Shown: positions 2,586-21,758 of the stretch, in pieces
Numbering within the stretch: the stretch's first letter is position 1
Layout of the letters: each line of letters opens with the position of its first letter
Source of the DNA: Candidatus Doudnabacteria bacterium
GTDB lineage: Bacteria; Patescibacteriota; Doudnabacteria; UBA920
DNA length: 64,000 bases
Reading direction: 5' to 3'
Assembly: GCA_016788665.1 (NCBI GenBank)
Contig: JAEUSF010000004.1
Coordinates: 29,407 to 93,406 of the forward strand
Program-made: the position numbers and the translations under genes
The notes under the pieces: model-generated
What the model was told of the DNA's origin: nothing
The model's database searches: none
The model's input: only the letters and a program-made list of their open reading frames with translations

Positions 2586-2750
2586 ATGATTTACATTTTC
2601 CAGATCTCAAATAGTCGGATAGCCTTGGTTGTCGATCATAACTGGGAAGATGCACAAGACGAGTTAGCCAGACAAGTTCCAAACCAAGAATTGCATCGGC
2701 TCGGATGTTATGAGAATGGTGGAACTTCTATTTACGACCTCAAGGCTTGA
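2586..2750 (+). CDS. Small hypothetical ORF (54 aa; an alternative upstream ATG at 2529 gives 73 aa) inside the str operon spacer
   Basis: GGAAGGAAGG Shine-Dalgarno 8 nt upstream of the ATG at 2586. An imperfect hairpin plus GGCTTTTTTG follows (2765-2808). About 45% GC by eye, against an AT-rich background. Confidence 0.3.
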   Translation: MIYIFQISNSRIALVVDHNWEDAQDELARQVPNQELHRLGCYENGGTSIYDLKA

Positions 2751-2885
2751 CCACACAGCTTTATTAGCACCGATATCAACCGCAATCGCGGTAGGGTCGG
2801 GGCTTTTTTGCCTAAATTCTGTAGGCATCTGCCAGTCCGACAGGTCATTCTGGCGGGTAGTGTAGTAAATCAGTAGTTCTGTAGC

Positions 2886-3476
2886 TTAGCGTCTTCCGAA
2901 ACGTGCAAAATGGGCAAATGCCTTGTTAGCCTCTGCCATTCTATGAGTGTCTTCACGCTTCTTTATAGCTGATCCGACTTTGTTAAAACCGTCAACTATT
3001 TCTGCAGCAAGCTTCTGTGCCATAGGGGCGCCTTTTCTGGCTCTTGCAGCGGCTATAAGCCACTTCATACCAATACTGGTTCTTCTTGGCTCGGAAACTT
3101 CCATAGGTACCTGATAGTTCGCACCACCAATTCGGCGGGACTTAAGTTCCATAATTGGAGCAATATTTTTCAAAGCAATATCAAAAACTTGTCTGCCATC
3201 TAACTTGGTGACTTTTGGCTGTTTTAAGTCTTCTTTTGCACCCGACTTGTCTTCCGAAGTCTTGGCAGGAGAAACTTTAACCGGTGCCGGAGCAGCCGGA
3301 GTTAAAGAAGCAGCTTTCTCTCCCACTATTTCTAAAGCAGAATAAAAAATCTTGCGAGCAACATTTTTCTTTCCGCGTTCCATCATATAATTTATAAATT
3401 TGGAATACTTAACAGAACCGAATTTTGGATCCGGCTCAGGAGTATGTTTGTCGTATGATCTAGATTTTCTTGGCAT
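2886..3476 (-). CDS. rpsG: 30S ribosomal protein S7 carrying a roughly 35-aa Ala/Pro/Lys-rich insertion
   Basis: N-terminus MPRK..DPKFGS and C-terminus KREDTHRMAEANKAFAHF are canonical S7. It is 196 aa rather than about 156, with the low-complexity insert AASLTPAAPAPVKVSPAKTSEDKSGAKEDLKQPK. Confidence 0.9.
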   Translation of the reverse strand: MPRKSRSYDKHTPEPDPKFGSVKYSKFINYMMERGKKNVARKIFYSALEIVGEKAASLTPAAPAPVKVSPAKTSEDKSGAKEDLKQPKVTKLDGRQVFDIALKNIAPIMELKSRRIGGANYQVPMEVSEPRRTSIGMKWLIAAARARKGAPMAQKLAAEIVDGFNKVGSAIKKREDTHRMAEANKAFAHFARFGRR

Positions 3477-4065: not shown

Positions 4066-4363
4066 TTATTTTCTTGAATAATTTTAAATAAACAACAAAA
4101 AAATCCCATAGCAAAGGATTATTTGCTACTTCGCATTCTTGGTAATGTCTCGAAGCCTGTGAGACTAGTAACTGTAGCTGCTCCATTTATGGAGCCGTTA
4201 ATCGGCCTAATGAATCAGGCAACTACCATTTACATCTTCCCAAATTTGCGACTTATAAATAAGTAATTCCCTTGCATTTAAAAATTTTATCTAAATGCTT
4301 CGGGGGCTTCTTATTCAATTAAGCTAATTCTACAAAAACAGACCTCTTTTGTCAAGCTAGGCA

Positions 4364-4954
4364 TTAGCCGACTATAACACTCAAAACAACTCTATACAAA
4401 GGCTCAACCAATACCGACAAAAGCCCTGTCATAACCAAAATTATTAAAACTATAAACCCATAGCTCTCCCACTTTAAAATATTTTCCTGCCAAGACCTAG
4501 GTGCTACTGACAATAAAACCTTACTTCCGTCCAAAGGCGGGATAGGAATTAAGTTAAAAACTCCAAGTGCAATATTTAAAAAGATTCCCCTGCCTAAAAC
4601 TACTGCAGCAAAATCACTCGCCAGACCTAAGCGAATTATAAACAAAAACAAAATAGCTAGCGCAAAGTTACTTAAAGGTCCGGCTAAAGCGACCATAGCC
4701 ATGCCTAGCCGCTGAGGACGCAGATTGTCAAAATTTACCGGGACCGGCCTTGCAGCTCCAATACCAACCAAAAAAGGCATTAGTATAGACCCTATGGGGT
4801 CTATATGCGGTATTGGGTTTAAAGTTATTCTACCCGCTTCCCTAGCTGTGTCGTCACCAAACTTTTCGGCCATTAGCCCATGACTCACCTCATGAACAAC
4901 AACGGAAAAAATAAGTATTATAACGTCTATAATTTTTAATGTAGTAGCGTCCAT
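4364..4954 (-). CDS. Site-2 protease family (M50) membrane zinc metalloprotease
   Basis: HEVSHG HExxH motif in a TM helix, with the LDG motif (NLIPIPPLDGSKV) downstream; polytopic membrane protein. Confidence 0.7.
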   Translation of the reverse strand: MDATTLKIIDVIILIFSVVVHEVSHGLMAEKFGDDTAREAGRITLNPIPHIDPIGSILMPFLVGIGAARPVPVNFDNLRPQRLGMAMVALAGPLSNFALAILFLFIIRLGLASDFAAVVLGRGIFLNIALGVFNLIPIPPLDGSKVLLSVAPRSWQENILKWESYGFIVLIILVMTGLLSVLVEPLYRVVLSVIVG

Positions 4955-9184: not shown

Positions 9185-9556
9185 TTATAAGTTTTTTTTT
9201 GCTGAGTTACTTGAGGCAATCATAATAGCCAATATCTCATGAGCTTCTTGCAAAAGGCTTTCCATTTTATTAAACGGTAATAGAGCCAAATCAATTAACA
9301 ACTCCATCCAAAAAATTGATTCATCGCATTCTTCAATCACAATACCAATTTTCGATATAAACTCAAGCTTAGACCGCGCTCTACACGCTGCCCTATAATT
9401 TGCCCCAACAGAGGTTCCGCATCGGAATAATTGATTCCCAATAATACTTCCTTCGTAATTTTTTGGAAGAGCTCGGCAGAGCTTAACTATCCTTATTGTA
9501 AAAGACTTTGTTCGGATTTTTAAGTCTTTGTCGGGCATAACATTTTGCACTCTCAA
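9185..9556 (-). CDS. Four-helix-bundle protein (23S rRNA intervening-sequence protein family)
   Basis: GSIIGNQLFRCGTSVGANYRAA motif characteristic of the TIGR02436/PF05635 family; 123 aa. Confidence 0.65.
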   Translation of the reverse strand: MRVQNVMPDKDLKIRTKSFTIRIVKLCRALPKNYEGSIIGNQLFRCGTSVGANYRAACRARSKLEFISKIGIVIEECDESIFWMELLIDLALLPFNKMESLLQEAHEILAIMIASSNSAKKNL

Positions 9557-9574
9557 TTTTCAGTTCTTCATTTT

Positions 9575-10540
9575 CTAAACTGTTAAATATCCACCGCCCT
9601 GCTCTACTGCTTTTTCAGCCATTTTATGAACAATGTCATTTAACTCTTCTTCACTGTAAAAGTCTATAAGAATTTTACCCGCTTGGCCTTGTCTTTGAAT
9701 TTTTACCTGAGCCCCAAGCTTTATGCGCAGTTCAGATTCCATTGCCATAAGTTTTGGGTCTGGAGCTGCCGCATCCATACTCTTTTTGGCTGTAAGCTCT
9801 CTAACTTTGTTTTCCACCTGCCTTACAGTCCAGTTATCTTCCATGGCTTTCTTAGCCATTAAAATAATTTTTTCCGGATCTTGTAAACCCAAAAGTCCCC
9901 TGGCATGACCTTCGCTTAAACGGCCTTCTATAACAAACCTCTGAACCTCTGCGGGAAGGTTAAGCAAACGCACAGTATTAGCTACCGCTGGCCTAGACTT
10001 ACCAACCTTTTTAGCCACCTGCTCTTGAGTAAGGCTAAACATAGTCATAAGCTTGCTATAAGCCTGACCATCTTCTATTGGGTTTAGTTCCTGGCGCTGA
10101 ATATTTTCTATAAGTGCAACTTCAAGCTTAGTCTGGTCAACCATTTCTTCCTTAATAATGGCAGGAACCATAGTAAGTCCCGCCAACTGGCTTGCCCGAA
10201 AACGCCTTTCACCCACTACCAACTCATAACCAGTCGGGGTTTTTATAACTACCAAAGGCTGAATAACCCCATGTTCTTTTATGGAGTCGGAAAGCTCTTT
10301 TAAAGCATTTGGTTCAAAAACTTTTCTTGGCTGAAAAGGGTTAGGAACTATTTTATCTATTTCAATCTGGTCAATACGTGCCCCTTCATAAGAAACTCTT
10401 TCAGAGACTTGGGCAGACACAACCGGCACTGCGGCAACAGACGCTTCTGAAACCGGTGGTACAGGAGCAGGCAAAATTGTTTCAAAACTGTCTAACGGCT
10501 GGATAGTTACGCTTGGCTGCGAGATAGAAATTGGGTCCAT
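9575..10540 (-). CDS. parB: ParB/Spo0J-like partition protein with an N-terminal Pro/Val-rich extension
   Basis: LVVGERRFRASQLAGL ParB box, HTH and C-terminal dimerisation region; 321 aa. Confidence 0.8.
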   Translation of the reverse strand: MDPISISQPSVTIQPLDSFETILPAPVPPVSEASVAAVPVVSAQVSERVSYEGARIDQIEIDKIVPNPFQPRKVFEPNALKELSDSIKEHGVIQPLVVIKTPTGYELVVGERRFRASQLAGLTMVPAIIKEEMVDQTKLEVALIENIQRQELNPIEDGQAYSKLMTMFSLTQEQVAKKVGKSRPAVANTVRLLNLPAEVQRFVIEGRLSEGHARGLLGLQDPEKIILMAKKAMEDNWTVRQVENKVRELTAKKSMDAAAPDPKLMAMESELRIKLGAQVKIQRQGQAGKILIDFYSEEELNDIVHKMAEKAVEQGGGYLTV

Positions 10541-10596: not shown

Positions 10597-10680
10597 TGGT
10601 GGCCGAGGAGAGAGTCGAACTCTCATGGGTTTCCCCGCGCGATTTTGAGTCGCGTGCGTCTGCCATTCCGCCACTCGGCC
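10597..10680 (-). tRNA. tRNA-Leu (anticodon CAA), class II with a long variable arm
   Basis: Hand-folded: acceptor GGCCGAG/CTCGGCC, 3-bp D stem, anticodon loop CTCAAAA, variable hairpin CGGGGAAACCCAT, T-arm GAGAG-TTCGACT-CTCTC, CCA encoded. Confidence 0.85.
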
Positions 10681-13396: not shown

Positions 13397-13870
13397 TTAA
13401 TACTTACCTATGTGTTTTTCAAAATGATCTTTAAAATTTTTTAAGGCAAAAGAAAATGCACTGTGTAGCGGCGAGGGCATGTTATCCAAAGTAAACCAAT
13501 CCAACTCATCAATTTTTTCAGGTTCGTTATTTTTTGCTTCCTCAGCATTTATTTGTATAAAAAAAGGTATTGCCAACCAGTGATTCACGACTCCATCAAA
13601 TTCTCTTAACACCGAACACGGCGCTACTCTACCAATTATTTTCCCCCTCGCCCCGTACTCCTCCAAAACCTCCTTTAACACATTTTCTTCCGGTGTTAGT
13701 CCAAACTCAAGTTTACCTGCTCCACTATCCCACTTGCCATTTTCATCGCGACAATTTTTACTGCGCCTATGGAGCAATATTCTTCCCTGCCCGTCAGTAC
13801 AATAAAACGGCGTACTCACTCCAATATAATCTACCCCAATCTTCATAGTATTATTTATAATGATATGCAA
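13397..13870 (-). CDS. Nudix hydrolase
   Basis: Nudix box GKLEFGLTPEENVLKEVLEEYG. Confidence 0.65.
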   Translation of the reverse strand: MHIIINNTMKIGVDYIGVSTPFYCTDGQGRILLHRRSKNCRDENGKWDSGAGKLEFGLTPEENVLKEVLEEYGARGKIIGRVAPCSVLREFDGVVNHWLAIPFFIQINAEEAKNNEPEKIDELDWFTLDNMPSPLHSAFSFALKNFKDHFEKHIGKY

Positions 13871-15839: not shown

Positions 15840-18800
15840 TTATATTACTAAGTTTATTATCCTACCCTTAATAAAAATCACTCTCTTTATAGTGTCACCC
15901 ACCAAAGCCTGCTTTACCGGCTCAAGCTTTAAAGCTTCATTCTTCACAGTTTCCTCACTAGCATTTAGAGCAACCCTGAGCTTACCCCTCACCTTGCCAT
16001 TTATTTGAACCACGATTTCGCTTTCACTTTCCAAAATTTTTGACTCGTCGAACAGAGGCCAAACCGCCTGTTGCAATGAGGTAACTTTATTCTTTTTCAG
16101 CTTAAGCACTTCCGCGCTCCTTAGCGCTAATTCTTCAGTTATATAGGGCGCAAAAGGATGAAGGACTTTTATGAATTTCTGCAAAGATTCCAAAGTAATA
16201 AAATCATCTTTAATCTGATTATGAAACTCCATAAAAGCAGAAATTGACGTATTGAACCTAAAATTTTCTATATCTTCCGTAACTTTCTTTATAAGCTTGT
16301 TTAGCTCCCTTTCCACTTTTTGGGTGTCTTGTACCCCTTTTTCCCCCTTCCCTTTTCTTGCCTCATGGGGTGCTTCAATTATTTCATTTGCCCAATTCCA
16401 AACCCTATCTAAAAACCTAGAAACCCCAACCACACCTGTATCAGACCAAGCAACCATAGACTCATGAGGACCTAAAAACATTTCATACATACGCAAAACA
16501 TCGGCCCCGTATTGCTTAACAATAGTCTGCGGATCCACAACGTTACCTCGGCTCTTAGACATTTTTTCACCGTCGGGGCCTAAAATTATACCGTGCGGTT
16601 TTCTTAACACATAAGGCTCCTTTTGACTAACCAAGCCCTGGTCATATAAAAACAAATTCCAAAAGCGACTATACAACAAATGCAAAGTCGTATGCTCCAT
16701 ACCGCCAAAGTACACATCCACCGGAGACCAATATTTTTGCTTTTGTAAGTCTGAAAATTTATTCTTATTTTTTGGGTCCATGTACCGTAGCCAGTACCAA
16801 GAGCTACCTGCCCACTGGGGCATAGTATTGGTTTCTCGCCATGCGGTTTTTTTACATATAGGGCACTTGGTTTTTAGCCAGGACTTTATATCTGCGAGCG
16901 GCGACTCACCTGTTCCGGTAGGTTCATATTTTTTTACATTAGGCAATTTAACAGGTAAATCTTTTTCCGGCACCGGCACCGCACCATGATCTTCACAGTG
17001 TATAAGCGGTATAGGTTCACCCCAATAACGTTGACGACTAAAAACCCAATCACGAAGTTTATAATTAACCACCTGAGTACCAAAAATCTCTGCCATTTTA
17101 GGTATTGCAACATCAGTACCCAAACCATCAAATTGTCCTGAATTAATGACCTTACCGTAGTCGGTAAAACACAAGTCTGAACACTTTTTTGTTATAAAAA
17201 GTAAATCTTTGTACCCTGTATCTGTAGCTTTGGTTTCTAAAACGTCAAGGACTGTAAAACCCAATCCATGTAGTTCTTTACGCATTTCCCCTTCTGTCCA
17301 ATATTTAAAATACCTCTCACTTTCCATCTTTGGATCTTTACCAAACCATTCCTTTGATTTTGCAAAATCCATCACAGAGAAAGCAAAAATACCACCGCGT
17401 TTTAAACTAGCATTAATACTTTTAACAATGATTTTAAACTGATCAGAATTGAAATGCAACAAAACCTTATTTGCAAAGATCAAATCATAAGGCTTAACTT
17501 CAATTTTATCTGTTAAAAGATTAAGCTTAATTACTTCCTTGCCCTGAGATTTCTGATATTCGATAAAGCTTTGTACTCCATCTGTCCTTTGTACTTTGTA
17601 TCCTAAACTTTCTACATAATTTGCATCTAACCCACGACCACTTCCCAATTCTAAAATGCTGGAATCTTTACTCGAAATTTCTTTGAGAAATTTATCTACC
17701 CATAGCTTATATTCACCTTCGACCTGCCTTACTGTTTTTTCTACATATTTACTAGCATTATTTTCATAGGTTTCTAAAGTTGCAAGTTGCTTTGGGTCTA
17801 AAGGAACAATAGGAACAACAACAGTTTTTATAGGCAAATTATATTTTTTCGCAAACTCAAAATCGCGCTGGTCGTGCGCAGGCACAGCCATAATAGCTCC
17901 TGTACCATAACTTCCTAAAACGTAATCCGCAACAAATACCGGAACTTCTTCTTTAGTAGCCGGATTTATAGCCTTTATACCTTTAAGCTCTACTCCGGTT
18001 TTTTCCCTTCCTTCTGCTGTTCTTTCTATATCTGCCTTAGACTTAGCTTTTTCAATGTATTTATTAACTTCTTTATAATTTGAAATTTGTAACTTTAAAT
18101 TTGAAATTATTTCATGTTCTGGAGCAATAACCATATAAGTCGCACCAAAAATAGTATCTGGGCGAGTAGTAAAAACTTTTATTCTTAATTCATAATTCTT
18201 AATTCCAAATTCAATTTCCGCACCCGTGCTTTTTCCAATCCAATTTTCCTGCTGCAATTTAACCGCTTCAGGCCACTGAGGCAGCTCTTTTAAACCTTGA
18301 AGTAGTTTTTCTGCATAAGCGGTAATTCTTAAATACCACTGCCTAAGCTCTTTTTTCTCTACCACGGTTCCGCAGCGTTCACATTTGCCGTCTATAACTT
18401 CTTCATTGGCAAGTCCAGTTTTGTCTTTTGGACACCAGTTAATAAGCCCTGTAGATTCAAAAGCCAGACCTTTTTTATAAAACTGTAAAAATAACCACTG
18501 TGTCCATTTATAATACTCCGGACTTGTAGTATTTATTTCCCTGCCCCAGTCAAACGAAAGCCCCCAAGAAAGCATTTGTTTTTTGGCATTGGCTACATTT
18601 TTCTTGGTAGTAATAGAAGGATGCACACCCATTTTTATAGCATAGTTTTCTGCAGGCAAACCAAAAGCATCCCACCCCATAGGAAATAGAGTTTCAAAGC
18701 CCTTCATACGATGATACCTAGCATAAACGTCCGCAGCTACATAAGGTCTTAAATGGCCCATGTGAAGTCCGGCGCCAGAGGGATAGGGAAATTCAACCAA

Positions 18801-18908
18801 AATATATTTTTTTGGCTTTTTTTTACTCTCGGTAGCTTTAAAAGGTTTTTTTGAAAGCCACTGCTTTTGCCATTTAGCTTCTACTTTTCCTGGATTGTAC
18901 TTTTGCAT
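15840..18908 (-). CDS. leuS: Leucyl-tRNA synthetase with an in-frame class I SAM-dependent methyltransferase domain insertion (about aa 361-585)
   Basis: HMGH, the TTRPDT editing motif, KMSKS and the anticodon-binding C-terminus are all present. At 1022 aa it exceeds the usual ~800-860. The insert carries ILELGSGRGLDANY (motif I) and LKRGGIFAFSV (post-II). Confidence 0.9.
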   Translation of the reverse strand: MQKYNPGKVEAKWQKQWLSKKPFKATESKKKPKKYILVEFPYPSGAGLHMGHLRPYVAADVYARYHRMKGFETLFPMGWDAFGLPAENYAIKMGVHPSITTKKNVANAKKQMLSWGLSFDWGREINTTSPEYYKWTQWLFLQFYKKGLAFESTGLINWCPKDKTGLANEEVIDGKCERCGTVVEKKELRQWYLRITAYAEKLLQGLKELPQWPEAVKLQQENWIGKSTGAEIEFGIKNYELRIKVFTTRPDTIFGATYMVIAPEHEIISNLKLQISNYKEVNKYIEKAKSKADIERTAEGREKTGVELKGIKAINPATKEEVPVFVADYVLGSYGTGAIMAVPAHDQRDFEFAKKYNLPIKTVVVPIVPLDPKQLATLETYENNASKYVEKTVRQVEGEYKLWVDKFLKEISSKDSSILELGSGRGLDANYVESLGYKVQRTDGVQSFIEYQKSQGKEVIKLNLLTDKIEVKPYDLIFANKVLLHFNSDQFKIIVKSINASLKRGGIFAFSVMDFAKSKEWFGKDPKMESERYFKYWTEGEMRKELHGLGFTVLDVLETKATDTGYKDLLFITKKCSDLCFTDYGKVINSGQFDGLGTDVAIPKMAEIFGTQVVNYKLRDWVFSRQRYWGEPIPLIHCEDHGAVPVPEKDLPVKLPNVKKYEPTGTGESPLADIKSWLKTKCPICKKTAWRETNTMPQWAGSSWYWLRYMDPKNKNKFSDLQKQKYWSPVDVYFGGMEHTTLHLLYSRFWNLFLYDQGLVSQKEPYVLRKPHGIILGPDGEKMSKSRGNVVDPQTIVKQYGADVLRMYEMFLGPHESMVAWSDTGVVGVSRFLDRVWNWANEIIEAPHEARKGKGEKGVQDTQKVERELNKLIKKVTEDIENFRFNTSISAFMEFHNQIKDDFITLESLQKFIKVLHPFAPYITEELALRSAEVLKLKKNKVTSLQQAVWPLFDESKILESESEIVVQINGKVRGKLRVALNASEETVKNEALKLEPVKQALVGDTIKRVIFIKGRIINLVI
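18077..18109. repeat. Dispersed AT-rich repeat copy inside leuS (encodes ISNLKLQISNYK)
   Basis: aatttgaaatttgtaactttaaatttgaaatta. Confidence 0.5.
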
Positions 18909-19114
18909 ATGTAAGTTTGACTTAAAATATGGGAATTGATAAATTGTGATTCAGGAGGACCTTAAATGGTCACAGAATGGATATCTTATCCGAAAGACGT
19001 GCTCGACGAAGATTGCAGCACACAACAACCGAGGATAACTACACAGCCCGATACCCCCGTAACCCCTTCGACTGACAAACAGCTTGAATTAGACTGGGAC
19101 CGACACTGCCGGGA

Positions 19115-19966: not shown

Positions 19967-20082
19967 GAAATTAAGAAGTAAGAATTAGGAAGTAAGAATC
20001 AAGCAAAAATCACACTTGATTTTTTAGTAAATGATAGTAAAATAACCTAAACGCCATTTTGGTGTAATAACAAGGAGCGAGC

Positions 20083-20250
20083 ATGATTACCGACGACCAG
20101 ACGATTGCAAAGGCCATCAAGGCCGGAAGACTTCCGGCCACAACTCCCGATCCGTTCAAAAAATCAGACCTTACGAACAACCCGCCGCCACCCGATCGCC
20201 CCGCACAACTTGAACCCAACCATTGGCGAACCAAAGCCAAATCGTCGTAA
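20083..20250 (+). CDS. Small Pro-rich hypothetical ORF (55 aa) with its own Shine-Dalgarno and terminator, between tatD and metG
   Basis: AAGGAG 6 nt upstream of the ATG at 20083; TAA at 20248-20250; a G/C hairpin plus T-run follows immediately. GC-rich compared with the flanks. Confidence 0.3.
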   Translation: MITDDQTIAKAIKAGRLPATTPDPFKKSDLTNNPPPPDRPAQLEPNHWRTKAKSS

Positions 20251-20255
20251 CCTCC

Positions 20256-20286
20256 GCCGCTGCCTGCAAACGCAGCGGTCTTTTTT
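20256..20286 (+). terminator. Rho-independent terminator CCGCTGC-ctgcaaac-GCAGCGG + TCTTTTTT
   Basis: Perfect 7-bp G/C stem followed by a T-run. Confidence 0.6.
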
Positions 20287-20291
20287 ATCTA

Positions 20292-20329
20292 GCATTTACT
20301 CCAATACTAGATAGTATTGGAGTAAATGC
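20292..20329. repeat. 38-bp near-perfect palindrome (18-bp arms, 2-nt spacer) abutting the metG stop
   Basis: GCATTTACTCCAATACTA-ga-TAGTATTGGAGTAAATGC. Confidence 0.6.
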
Positions 20330-20333
20330 ACTA

Positions 20334-21758
20334 TTATTGAACACGAGGGAAAAGCGGCTCGGCTTTGGTTATTTTTTCTTTTTTTAAATGTTCTAAAATC
20401 TTTCTGCTTACTTCTGGCATAAACGGTTGTAAATGAGTAGACGTAGTAACCAAACAAGAAAGAATCTGCGTAGAAATTTCTTCAAACTTTTTTACGTCAG
20501 TCTTACCAAGTTCCCATAACTTGTTTTCGTCTACAGCCTTGTTGCCCCAGGCAACCCATTCCCACATTTTTGCCAAGGCTTCATGGAATTTATAATTTTC
20601 TATCAACTCATCAATATTATCAGATGTTTTCCAAAGCTGCGCTTCACCAATGACAAGTGACGGACTGTATTTTTCCACTAAAGTTGTAATACGACTAAGC
20701 AAATTACCAAGCCCATTAGCTAAGTCGCCGCTATACCGCAATTTCAGCTTTTCCTCACTTATATCACCATCCTGTCCAAACGGAACTTCTCGGAGCAGAA
20801 AATACCTTACTACATCTGGCCCATACTTAGTTGCCCACTCAATTGGGTCTATGACATTGCCTATAGTTTTGCTAATTTTTTGGCCATCTATGGTAAAGAA
20901 GCCATGCGCAAACACTTTTTTCGGGACTTTTTCGCCAATAGCCAGCAAAAGAGCAGGCCAAATTACACAGTGGAATTTTATAATATCCTTTCCTACCAAA
21001 TGCATATCGACCGGCCAGTATTTATTAAATTTTTCAGTGTCGGTTCCGTACCCCACTGCTGTACAGTAATTAAAAAGCTCATCTAACCAAACATAAATTG
21101 TTTGGCTTTCGTCCCACGGCAGGGGCAAAGCAAACTTTGCATTTTGCCTTGATATGGCTATATCTTCCAAGCCCTGATCTATAAAAGACAGAATTTCATT
21201 TTTTCTCTCTTCAGGCGCGACTACCAACTCTAAACTTAAGATTTTTTCTTTCAAAATTGGTCCGTATTCGGACAACTTAAAGAACCAATTCTTTTCCTTA
21301 ACCATTTCCGGCTTAGTCTTGTGGTCGGGGCATACACCGTTTACTAACTCGGATTCTTTTATAAAAGCTTCATGCCCAATACAATAAAGCCCTTCGTACT
21401 CACCCTCGTAGATTTTCCCTGAGTCTTTTAGCTTTAAAAAGAATTTATTTACAGCTTCAGCATGCCTTTTCTCAGTTGTGCGAATAAAATCATTATTAGT
21501 AATTTGTAATACATCCCATGCCGTAGAAAACTTAGCAGACATTTCGTCAGCAAAGCTTTGAGGGTCTTTACCTGCCTTCTCAGCACTGGTTGCAATTTTA
21601 CTTCCATGCTCAGCGGTACCTGCCAAAAAAAATGTGTCGACACCCTTATTGCGATAATACCGCGCCAGAACATCTGCAGCTATGGTTGTATAAGCCGAAC
21701 CAATATGGGGCTTATCGTTTATATAGTAAATAGGGGTGGTAATATAAAATTTTTCCAT
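20334..21758 (-). CDS. metG: Methionyl-tRNA synthetase (short form, no C-terminal tRNA-binding extension)
   Basis: YYINDKPHIGSAYTT, then HIGH and KMSKS-class motifs; 474 aa. Confidence 0.9.
   Translation of the reverse strand: MEKFYITTPIYYINDKPHIGSAYTTIAADVLARYYRNKGVDTFFLAGTAEHGSKIATSAEKAGKDPQSFADEMSAKFSTAWDVLQITNNDFIRTTEKRHAEAVNKFFLKLKDSGKIYEGEYEGLYCIGHEAFIKESELVNGVCPDHKTKPEMVKEKNWFFKLSEYGPILKEKILSLELVVAPEERKNEILSFIDQGLEDIAISRQNAKFALPLPWDESQTIYVWLDELFNYCTAVGYGTDTEKFNKYWPVDMHLVGKDIIKFHCVIWPALLLAIGEKVPKKVFAHGFFTIDGQKISKTIGNVIDPIEWATKYGPDVVRYFLLREVPFGQDGDISEEKLKLRYSGDLANGLGNLLSRITTLVEKYSPSLVIGEAQLWKTSDNIDELIENYKFHEALAKMWEWVAWGNKAVDENKLWELGKTDVKKFEEISTQILSCLVTTSTHLQPFMPEVSRKILEHLKKEKITKAEPLFPRVQ

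Follow-up and report, generated by a model that had tools for sequence, protein, structure and literature searches.

What is a methyltransferase doing inside a leucyl-tRNA synthetase? The question is raised by a 64,000-nucleotide stretch of a Candidatus Doudnabacteria genome (contig JAEUSF010000004.1, positions 29,407 to 93,406; hereafter "the window"), where the gene leuS, at 15840..18908 on the minus strand, encodes a complete class Ia leucyl-tRNA synthetase (LeuRS) that carries a nested methyltransferase. The original prediction, made from the DNA letters only, had proposed an in-frame fusion of LeuRS with a class I S-adenosylmethionine (SAM)-dependent methyltransferase. Profile search and fold prediction confirm that the fusion exists and that the fold is genuine. 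The protein is triply nested and apparently bifunctional, and the loop that hosts the second enzyme, in the editing domain CP1 (connective peptide 1), is a cassette port in Doudnabacteria-like bacteria of the Candidate Phyla Radiation (CPR).

Position of the methyltransferase within LeuRS

The gene is a single open reading frame of 1022 codons plus a stop, starting with ATG and free of internal stops or frameshifts. Its product is 100% identical to the NCBI entry [quoted passage not shown] (protein P0003). Public records of such proteins are annotated merely as leucine--tRNA ligase or, at the Joint Genome Institute (JGI), as LeuRS/esterase; one relative with a different insert is labelled [quoted passage not shown]. 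In terms of Pfam domains, PF13603 (E 1.7e-62), PF00133, PF09334 and PF08264 are all matched in the full-length protein, the last at aa 865-987, showing that the anticodon-binding helical domain is present. Thermus thermophilus LeuRS (1h3n) aligns end to end, to the last residue, with an E-value of 5.8e-224, so the C-terminal tRNA-binding domain is present as well. Missing from this alignment is the Leu-specific domain (T. thermophilus residues ~580-636), which is variable and does not define bacterial LeuRS.

Motif conservation was scored on 76 aligned LeuRS relatives, both insert-bearing and insert-free. Nearly all motif residues are invariant and a few are conserved in at least 90%. All positions of leuS given here and below are on the minus strand. 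The HIGH signature reads HMGH (aa 49-52; 18753..18764), with G51 and H52 invariant and H49 and M50 at least 90% conserved. Within the editing site, the Thr-rich motif TTRPDT (aa 247-252; 18153..18170) has T247, T248, P250 and T252 invariant in relatives with and without inserts, and HDQRD (aa 345-349; 17862..17876) has H345, D346, R348 and D349 invariant. In LeuRS editing, the conserved Asp of HDQRD anchors the alpha-amino group. The KMSKS signature (aa 782-786; 16551..16565) is invariant, and a GTG motif is likewise present and kept across relatives with and without inserts. With every aminoacylation signature and editing-site residue in place, leucylation and editing by this LeuRS are probably retained.

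The extra segment is large. Between HDQRD and the NSGxFxG motif lie 244 aa in the window protein, against mostly 26-47 aa in insert-free relatives. The alignment to 1h3n falls into blocks, with query residues 1-370 matching T. thermophilus 1-369 and residues 580-777 matching 376-579; therefore the net insertion is ~200-210 aa, standing in for about six residues. The original prediction had put the segment at ~225 residues, set against ~20 in Escherichia coli. Its motifs were found at the places it gave: 17154-17828 corresponds exactly to aa 361-585, NSGQFDGL to aa 589-596, and the segment taken for the end of CP1 to aa 341-360.

That segment, however, is not the end of CP1, and the insert does not follow the editing domain as had been proposed. 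The native PF13603 match covers just model positions 1-143 of 185. When aa 367-578 are deleted in silico, the match becomes contiguous, covering positions 1-182 of 185 with 215.5 bits, and therefore the methyltransferase interrupts CP1 instead of coming after it. The nesting is three levels deep, with the methyltransferase in CP1 and CP1 in the Rossmann catalytic domain. The insert starts 16 residues past HDQRD, in a length-variable surface loop of CP1 that we call site B.

From the N-terminal side, the order of segments is as follows. The part of CP1 that precedes the insert (aa 221-367; 17808..18248) holds PF13603 positions 1-143. A linker, PIVPLDP (aa 365-371; 17796..17816), leads from a CP1 strand into the methyltransferase; it was placed from the AlphaFold2 model and the junction alignment. 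The first 11 residues of the AlphaFold2 insert model are coil and helix 1 begins at insert residue 12, and this junction is common to P0004, P0005 and locus L004. At the far end, a second linker, CSDLCFTDYG (aa 576-585; 17154..17183), leads back into CP1, as seen from the junction alignment and from the model's confidence (pLDDT, predicted local distance difference test), which drops to ~51. The remaining part of CP1 (aa 586-616, beginning KVINSGQFDG; 17061..17153) holds PF13603 positions ~144-182, as placed by the in-silico deletion. It is followed by the return strand of the catalytic domain, KLRDWVFSRQRYWGEPIP (aa 617-634; 17007..17060), identified from the 1h3n alignment. The peptides that span the two junctions are KTVVVPIVPLDPK and CFTDYGKVINSGQFDGL.

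Four independent assemblies from different projects carry the methyltransferase, uninterrupted, at the identical LeuRS junction. Besides the window (P0003), these are JBBRWU010000001 (P0004), a Doudnabacteria metagenome-assembled genome; Ga0172371_10005830 (P0005); and CAYZEI010000004 (locus L004), labelled Saccharibacteria by its depositor. The same fusion had been suggested as something to look for in related genomes, and it was found in these three further assemblies at the same residue, a result that takes the place of the proposed read-coverage check. All four loci share the gene order MetRS-TatD-LeuRS-TsaC(Sua5)-MFS (major facilitator superfamily) transporter. Since the four assemblies have the same junctions, the fusion is not a chimera.

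The inserted domain is translated in this frame and is under purifying selection. The ratio of nonsynonymous to synonymous substitution rates (dN/dS) is 0.10 at a dS of 0.79 for the least saturated pair, L004 versus L005. For the window insert against the other three copies, the proportion of nonsynonymous differences (pN) is 0.27-0.28 and that of synonymous differences (pS) 0.71-0.79. Flanking direct or inverted repeats around the insert occur at chance level only, and no signs of an intein (Hint motifs, terminal His-Asn, junction residues) were seen in the sequence, the methyltransferase fold accounting for the whole insert. Within the 64-kb window there is neither a second copy of the methyltransferase nor a second leuS. 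The GC content of the insert is 33.2%, compared to 39.1% for the rest of leuS, which fits a foreign or faster-evolving origin.

The depositor's label of L004 (CAYZEI010000004.1) is "uncultured Candidatus Saccharibacteria". Its LeuRS carries a hydrolase in addition to the methyltransferase and has ~84% core identity to P0005. This label may be wrong, because both the leuS neighbourhood and the LeuRS match the Doudnabacteria loci.

Fold, active site and relatives of the inserted domain

The methyltransferase domain proper spans aa 372-575 (17184..17795) and is made of two N-terminal helices followed by a core of alternating strands and helices. Methyltransf_23 (PF13489) is matched at aa 394-555 of the full protein with 38.1 bits, above the curated cut-off of 27, and on the insert alone with 42.3 bits (E 8.4e-11); PF08241 scores 27.2 against a cut-off of 21.2. 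With an alignment of 116 free-standing homologues, AlphaFold2 models the insert at a pLDDT of 92.4 and a predicted TM-score (pTM) of 0.90. The model has the seven-stranded alpha/beta fold, with nine strand segments assigned by DSSP. Its leading structural matches are SAM-bound 3e23, DhpI, cg3271, toxoflavin N-methyltransferase and phosphoethanolamine N-methyltransferases (PMTs).

The SAM-binding motifs are all in place. Motif I, the glycine loop ILELGSGRGLDANY (aa 418-431; 17616..17657), contains LELGSGRG at aa 419-426; in insert numbering, E60 and G62 are invariant in the family, and at G66 and D68 conservation is 90% or more. Together with the acidic end of strand 2, this motif is invariant or nearly so across 117 family members. 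The post-I acidic loop RTD (aa 441-443; 17580..17588) ends in D443 (D83 of the insert), invariant in the same 117 members and, from general knowledge of class I methyltransferases, presumably the ligand of the SAM ribose. Motif II, YDLIFANKVLLHF (aa 474-486; 17451..17489), carries a catalytic-type His, H485 (H125 of the insert), which is also invariant. LKRGGIFAFSV (aa 502-512; 17373..17405), with invariant G146, had been read as post-II; we take it to be the classical motif III in the Kagan and Clarke nomenclature.

Next to motif III, the picture changes. Free-standing members share 51 positions at a conservation of 85% or more, and 39 of these are kept in the window copy, including every SAM-motif residue, Y21, Y28, W43, E60, G62, G66, D68 and D83, as well as H125, K167, R172, Y176 and W177. 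The lost positions cluster just past strand 5, where the lid or substrate segment MDFAKSKEWFGKDPKMES (aa 513-530; 17319..17372) stands in place of the near-invariant K153-x2-G156-x-G158 and P171. This segment is remodelled relative to the free-standing family and conserved in the embedded copies, with M144, D145, K148, E151, F153, K155, D156, K158, M159, E160 and S161 invariant in three of them. All four embedded copies keep E60, G62, D83, H125, R172 and W177.

As for relatives, an exhaustive phmmer scan with the insert returned 1737 proteins. Nearly all of the best 150 are single-domain proteins of ~200 aa, with 29-47% identity and no RNA-binding module, and the nearest are free-standing methyltransferases of this size at 40-47% identity. 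The embedded copies form their own subgroup, sharing 54-66% identity among the three proteins found in the search and 85% between L004 and L005, while no free-standing protein exceeds 47% identity to them. A BLAST of the insert alone, proposed with the original prediction as a check on whether matches are embedded or free-standing, was run and gave this same picture. A word-indexed search with the insert returned two free-standing proteins and missed the self-match, and its profile version missed the embedded copies; this index is non-exhaustive, and the count of embedded copies rests on separate searches. By sequence comparison, the inserted methyltransferase descends from this large family of free-standing ~200-aa enzymes.

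The family profile matches Plasmodium PMTs with E-values of 3e-11 to 8e-10, immediately behind 3e23. The link is visible solely with the family profile (E ~1e-10), as the single insert sequence has no PMT match at E<=0.01. In the profile alignment, "..dlifAnaVllHft" is set against "DLIYSRDAILHLS", so that H485 pairs with His-132 of PfPMT (counted from chain residue 52), and a family-invariant Arg pairs with PfPMT Arg-179. Arg-179 reportedly binds phosphate in the PfPMT structure. The N-terminal helix of the insert carries the invariant Y21 and near-invariant Y28; this helix lies outside the profile alignment. In PfPMT, Tyr-19 and His-132 form a "catalytic latch". The MDFAKSKEWFGKDPKMES lid aligns with the PfPMT substrate loop from Tyr-160 to Tyr-175. 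Both of these tyrosines fall in non-tyrosine columns of the family consensus in the profile alignment, and only the Tyr-181 column is aromatic (F174). Taken together, these residues suggest to us that the methyltransferase is active, that its catalytic equipment resembles that of PMTs and that its substrate lid has been re-tuned.

Other families were matched poorly or not at all. NCBIfam gave just sub-threshold matches of BioC, TehB and UbiG type for the insert, with all equivalogs far under their cut-offs, and no RNA-methyltransferase family was matched in Pfam or NCBIfam. In relation to the tRNA methyltransferases METTL6/Trm140, Trm9 and CmoA, the insert shows generic fold similarity only, with neither sequence membership nor an RNA-binding extension. 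Net charge was dropped as an argument on RNA binding. It is +1 to +2 in embedded copies and -8 on average in the family, and it is uninformative because a free-standing CPR homologue has +6.

Elsewhere, free-standing relatives are fused to NUDIX (three proteins), HAD, HIT/DcpS and ASCH domains (P0333, P0220, P0153, P0155, P0165 and P0255), and also to peptidase and O-methyltransferase domains. This set overlaps with that of the LeuRS inserts and consists mostly of nucleotide and phospho-ester enzymes, which hints at a shared "house-cleaning" theme. Regarding gene context, one relative with 41% identity (P0281) lies on a Candidatus Berkelbacteria contig (locus L011, 2124-4612), directly downstream of the genes for GluRS, L27 and L19. 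It is the sole translation-linked context among the three free-standing neighbourhoods inspected.

Cassette sites and their exchange in CPR synthetases

Inserts were counted in an alignment of the 120 best LeuRS matches, which samples the neighbourhood of the query and is no census. Named sources are all CPR/Patescibacteria, except for one labelled only "bacterium". Three insertion hot-spots were found. Site A lies where CP1 begins, flanked by GAEIEF and IKVFTTRPDT, after aa ~236 (about 18195-18200), and holds a Ser_hydrolase (PF06821/PF00561) in 56 of the 120. Site B, where the methyltransferase sits, holds a NUDIX domain in 21, the methyltransferase in 3, a HAD domain in one and a Ser_hydrolase in one (P0024); further segments there (122, 60 and 46 aa) are unassigned. 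Site C follows RYWGEPIPLIHC, after aa ~640 (about 16985-16990), and holds a Ser_hydrolase in two proteins (P0079 and P0106) and an unassigned 141-aa domain in two others (P0101 and P0103). The window LeuRS has no insert at sites A and C.

Some proteins combine inserts, and hydrolase plus methyltransferase, hydrolase plus NUDIX and hydrolase plus HAD were all seen. The sibling inserts retain, as read in their sequences, the GHSxG nucleophile elbow and a complete NUDIX box. The lone PDB sequence match of the NUDIX insert is an Ap4A (diadenosine tetraphosphate) hydrolase, 1f3y (E 7e-6). For the 141-aa domain, Pfam gave no match and the PDB none that is convincing; by eye, its sequence (with RKRKTVDTRSF and GDVIPLF) may be ASCH/PUA-like. 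The methyltransferase variant is rare, at 2 loci among 185,579 GTDB species representatives.

The core of the window LeuRS is nearest to P0006 (84%), with a 46-aa remnant at site B, and then to P0007 (81%), with a NUDIX domain there; the P0007 locus (L002) is syntenic with the window. Other methyltransferase-bearing LeuRS are less close, at 76-77% core identity. In a neighbour-joining tree of the core, methyltransferase-bearing proteins fall into two clades, with NUDIX-bearing and empty ones between. At shorter distances, P0020 (empty) and P0033 (a 177-aa hydrolase at site A) have cores that are 96.4% identical, and P0010 (empty) and P0005 (hydrolase and methyltransferase) 88.7%. This is near strain-level polymorphism of whole catalytic domains of 177-210 aa in an essential gene. 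The methyltransferase is folded, selectively maintained, dispensable at short evolutionary distance and interchangeable with small hydrolases.

The one subgroup, the identical junctions and the identity of at most 47% to free-standing proteins imply a single origin of the methyltransferase inserts, which were later lost, replaced or transferred. The simplest mechanism is probably homologous recombination of leuS alleles via the nearly invariant flanks (AHDxRDFEFA on one side, NSGxFxGL on the other). Two nearby genes were considered as donors and ruled out: the free-standing methyltransferase of locus L001 for the methyltransferase insert (E 0.19), and the NUDIX gene of L002 for the NUDIX insert of P0007 (E 0.056).

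Other features of these loci were also noted. Locus L001, which carries P0004, has three extra genes relative to the window (2638-3282, 4318-4731 and 9443-9811). They are a free-standing Methyltransf_11, which lies between metG and tatD and has no relation to the insert; a fragment of an IS200-like Y1 transposase, immediately 5' of leuS; and a bAvd/23S_rRNA_IVP gene 3' of tsaC. The window has a free-standing 157-aa NUDIX gene (PF00293, E 1.3e-13) at 13397-13870 on the minus strand, between the MFS transporter and serine hydroxymethyltransferase (SHMT) genes, and the L002 gene lies at the same position. The leuS leader (18909-19114, 206 nt) and the metG-tatD spacer (19967-20333) have a GC content of ~48-50%, compared to 39.5% for the window; an Rfam scan of both gave one sub-threshold chance match only. 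MetRS (20334-21758, minus strand) has only 474 aa, which are taken up by the catalytic and anticodon domains; the C-terminal extension found in many of the longer bacterial MetRS would not fit. A tRNA-Leu(CAA) gene (10597-10680, minus strand) lies 5 kb downstream of leuS, adjoining parB, and its product would be a convenient substrate for tRNA methylation tests.

Possible functions and comparison with known systems

The explanation that we favour, with about an even chance of being correct as a whole, is that of a LeuRS scaffold with an autonomous small-molecule methyltransferase module. LeuRS would go on charging and proofreading tRNA-Leu, and would act as a constitutively expressed scaffold and expression vehicle. 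The nested methyltransferase is predicted to be autonomous and catalytically active. Its likely substrate would be a small phosphorylated or anionic metabolite, of the phosphobase or nucleotide type seen with PMT-, RPA2492- and DhpI-like enzymes, rather than tRNA, and the remodelled lid suggests that specificity may have moved away from that of the free-standing enzymes. Cassettes would be gained, lost and swapped through homologous recombination between leuS alleles. We lean towards a small molecule because of the PMT profile matches, the absence of any RNA-methyltransferase family among the matches, the single-domain relatives and the phospho-enzyme fusion partners.

Several observations weigh against this explanation. 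The same Ser_hydrolase family is present at all three sites, and this, together with the position of site B 16 residues from the editing Asp, argues for a functional link to LeuRS over mere loop tolerance. METTL6, which uses a synthetase to present its tRNA, is a near fold neighbour. The lid has been swapped in all embedded copies for a different conserved sequence, and the embedded enzymes may no longer share the substrate of their free-standing relatives. Among solved structures, the closest homologue, 3e23 (RPA2492), was crystallised with SAM and is itself uncharacterised, and the three free-standing neighbourhoods bear no relation to one another and give no consistent functional hint. Finally, an AlphaFold2 model of the full-length protein, built on a shallow alignment of LeuRS only, is confident in the LeuRS core and gives the insert a pLDDT of 44-68.

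A link to tRNA is the alternative that we take most seriously, as a possible but minority explanation. LeuRS would supply tRNA-Leu in cis, and the domain would methylate either the tRNA or an aminoacyl or adenylate species held by the editing domain, much as METTL6 works with SerRS but with the two partners covalently joined. The matches to Pfam and NCBIfam speak against it, since they include no RNA-methyltransferase family, and so do the catalytic-type residues, which are those of a free-standing, single-domain family; small molecules are the substrates of its best characterised relatives. Near-identical LeuRS also exist without the domain, so any tRNA modification would be dispensable. This same dispensability at short distance would suit a catalytically silent module, which would bind SAM or S-adenosylhomocysteine (SAH) or be purely structural, and either modulate the editing or aminoacylation activity of LeuRS as a metabolic sensor or merely be tolerated. 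The lid region, off the family consensus at 12 of the 51 conserved positions, and the faster evolution of the insert compared to the core (54-57% versus ~75% identity) point the same way. We nonetheless regard a silent module as unlikely: all SAM-binding and putative catalytic residues are kept in four copies, a dN/dS of ~0.10 suits a working enzyme and not a decaying passenger, and the sibling inserts keep their catalytic motifs too.

A further variant, which we consider quite unlikely, joins all the cassettes into an "accessory-chemistry port". CPR LeuRS lineages would plug enzymes in beside the editing pocket to act on LeuRS-bound species, such as the tRNA 3' end, mis-acylated or damaged aminoacyl-tRNA, aminoacyl-adenylate or Ap4A, forming an expandable station for proofreading, repair or by-product processing. 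The PMT-like methyltransferase might then N-methylate the alpha-amine of aminoacyl-adenylate or aminoacyl-tRNA, a target proposed because aminoacyl species share the amine-C-C-O-P (or ester) skeleton with phosphoethanolamine. Methylation of a protein, either LeuRS itself or another translation factor, is very unlikely; the domain has no specific sequence link to protein methyltransferase families, and its relatives at the profile level are PMT and TehB-like small-molecule enzymes. The lower GC content of the insert counts in favour of an artefact (chimeric assembly, hidden frameshift, or excised intein or intron). The probability of an artefact is close to nil, given the junctions shared by four assemblies, a pN far below pS, and the lack of intein features and flanking repeats.

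The finding matters in several ways. Few proteins are as highly conserved as aminoacyl-tRNA synthetases, and here a second catalytic domain, joined in relatives by a third, sits inside the LeuRS editing domain. The sites provide a natural map of CP1 positions that tolerate insertions of 150-210 aa, useful for LeuRS engineering. Rapid in-frame domain exchange in an essential gene of genome-reduced CPR bacteria bears on how small proteomes are reshuffled. The fusion also gives a lead on the function of the large uncharacterised RPA2492/3e23-like family, and possibly on new chemistry tied to tRNA charging. Should the module prove to be a housekeeping enzyme that is merely carried by LeuRS and has no functional tie to it, the protein would still be a clear example of triple nesting, although a mechanistically ordinary one.

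The original prediction knew of no described synthetase of this architecture, and literature searches agree: no published description of it, or of synthetase insertions in CPR bacteria, was found in full-text literature, with most subscription journals outside the coverage. The closest cases are the sibling CPR LeuRS with NUDIX, HAD or Ser_hydrolase domains in CP1. They share the host, the site B loop, the gene neighbourhood and the use of small, intact single-domain enzymes, and differ in the inserted fold and its chemistry; they are known from databases, with no paper found.

A methyltransferase paired with a synthetase is also seen in yeast, where Trm140 works with SerRS. In the METTL6-SerRS-tRNA-Ser complex, the methyltransferase uses the synthetase to present tRNA, and its activity at position 32 (m3C32) has been demonstrated (PMC11479938). 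That pairing is non-covalent and eukaryotic and has proven tRNA activity, whereas the one described here is covalent, nested and bacterial and has no RNA-methyltransferase signature. With RPA2492 (3e23) and the Plasmodium PMTs (3uj6, 4iv0 and 4r6w), the insert shares the fold, the SAM motifs and the equivalents of PfPMT His-132 and Arg-179. Those enzymes, however, are free-standing and just 14-28% identical to the insert; in the profile alignment, the family consensus has no tyrosines to match Tyr-160 and Tyr-175, and in the embedded copies the lid is remodelled.

Lineage-specific extra sequence is known in other synthetases. CAAD domains are inserted in cyanobacterial ValRS, LeuRS, IleRS and GluRS, and peptides are inserted in CP1 of Aquifex and Giardia LeuRS. 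The membrane-anchored cyanobacterial ValRS has been covered in the literature (PMC4893482). Like the methyltransferase, these additions leave the canonical function in place; unlike it, they are non-catalytic, acting as membrane anchors or editing-tuning peptides, while the methyltransferase insert makes up a full second enzyme that other enzymes can replace. CP1 itself is nested in the Rossmann fold of class I synthetases, and in this the methyltransferase insert resembles it; in a survey of domain insertions from 2026, PF13603 counts as "insertion-exclusive", being the inserted domain in 213 events and the host in none (PMC13114784), whereas here PF13603 is itself the host. Inserted and appended domains were already known in aminoacyl-tRNA synthetases; the novelty of this case is that the editing domain contains a complete second enzyme, which is exchanged for other enzymes among close orthologues.

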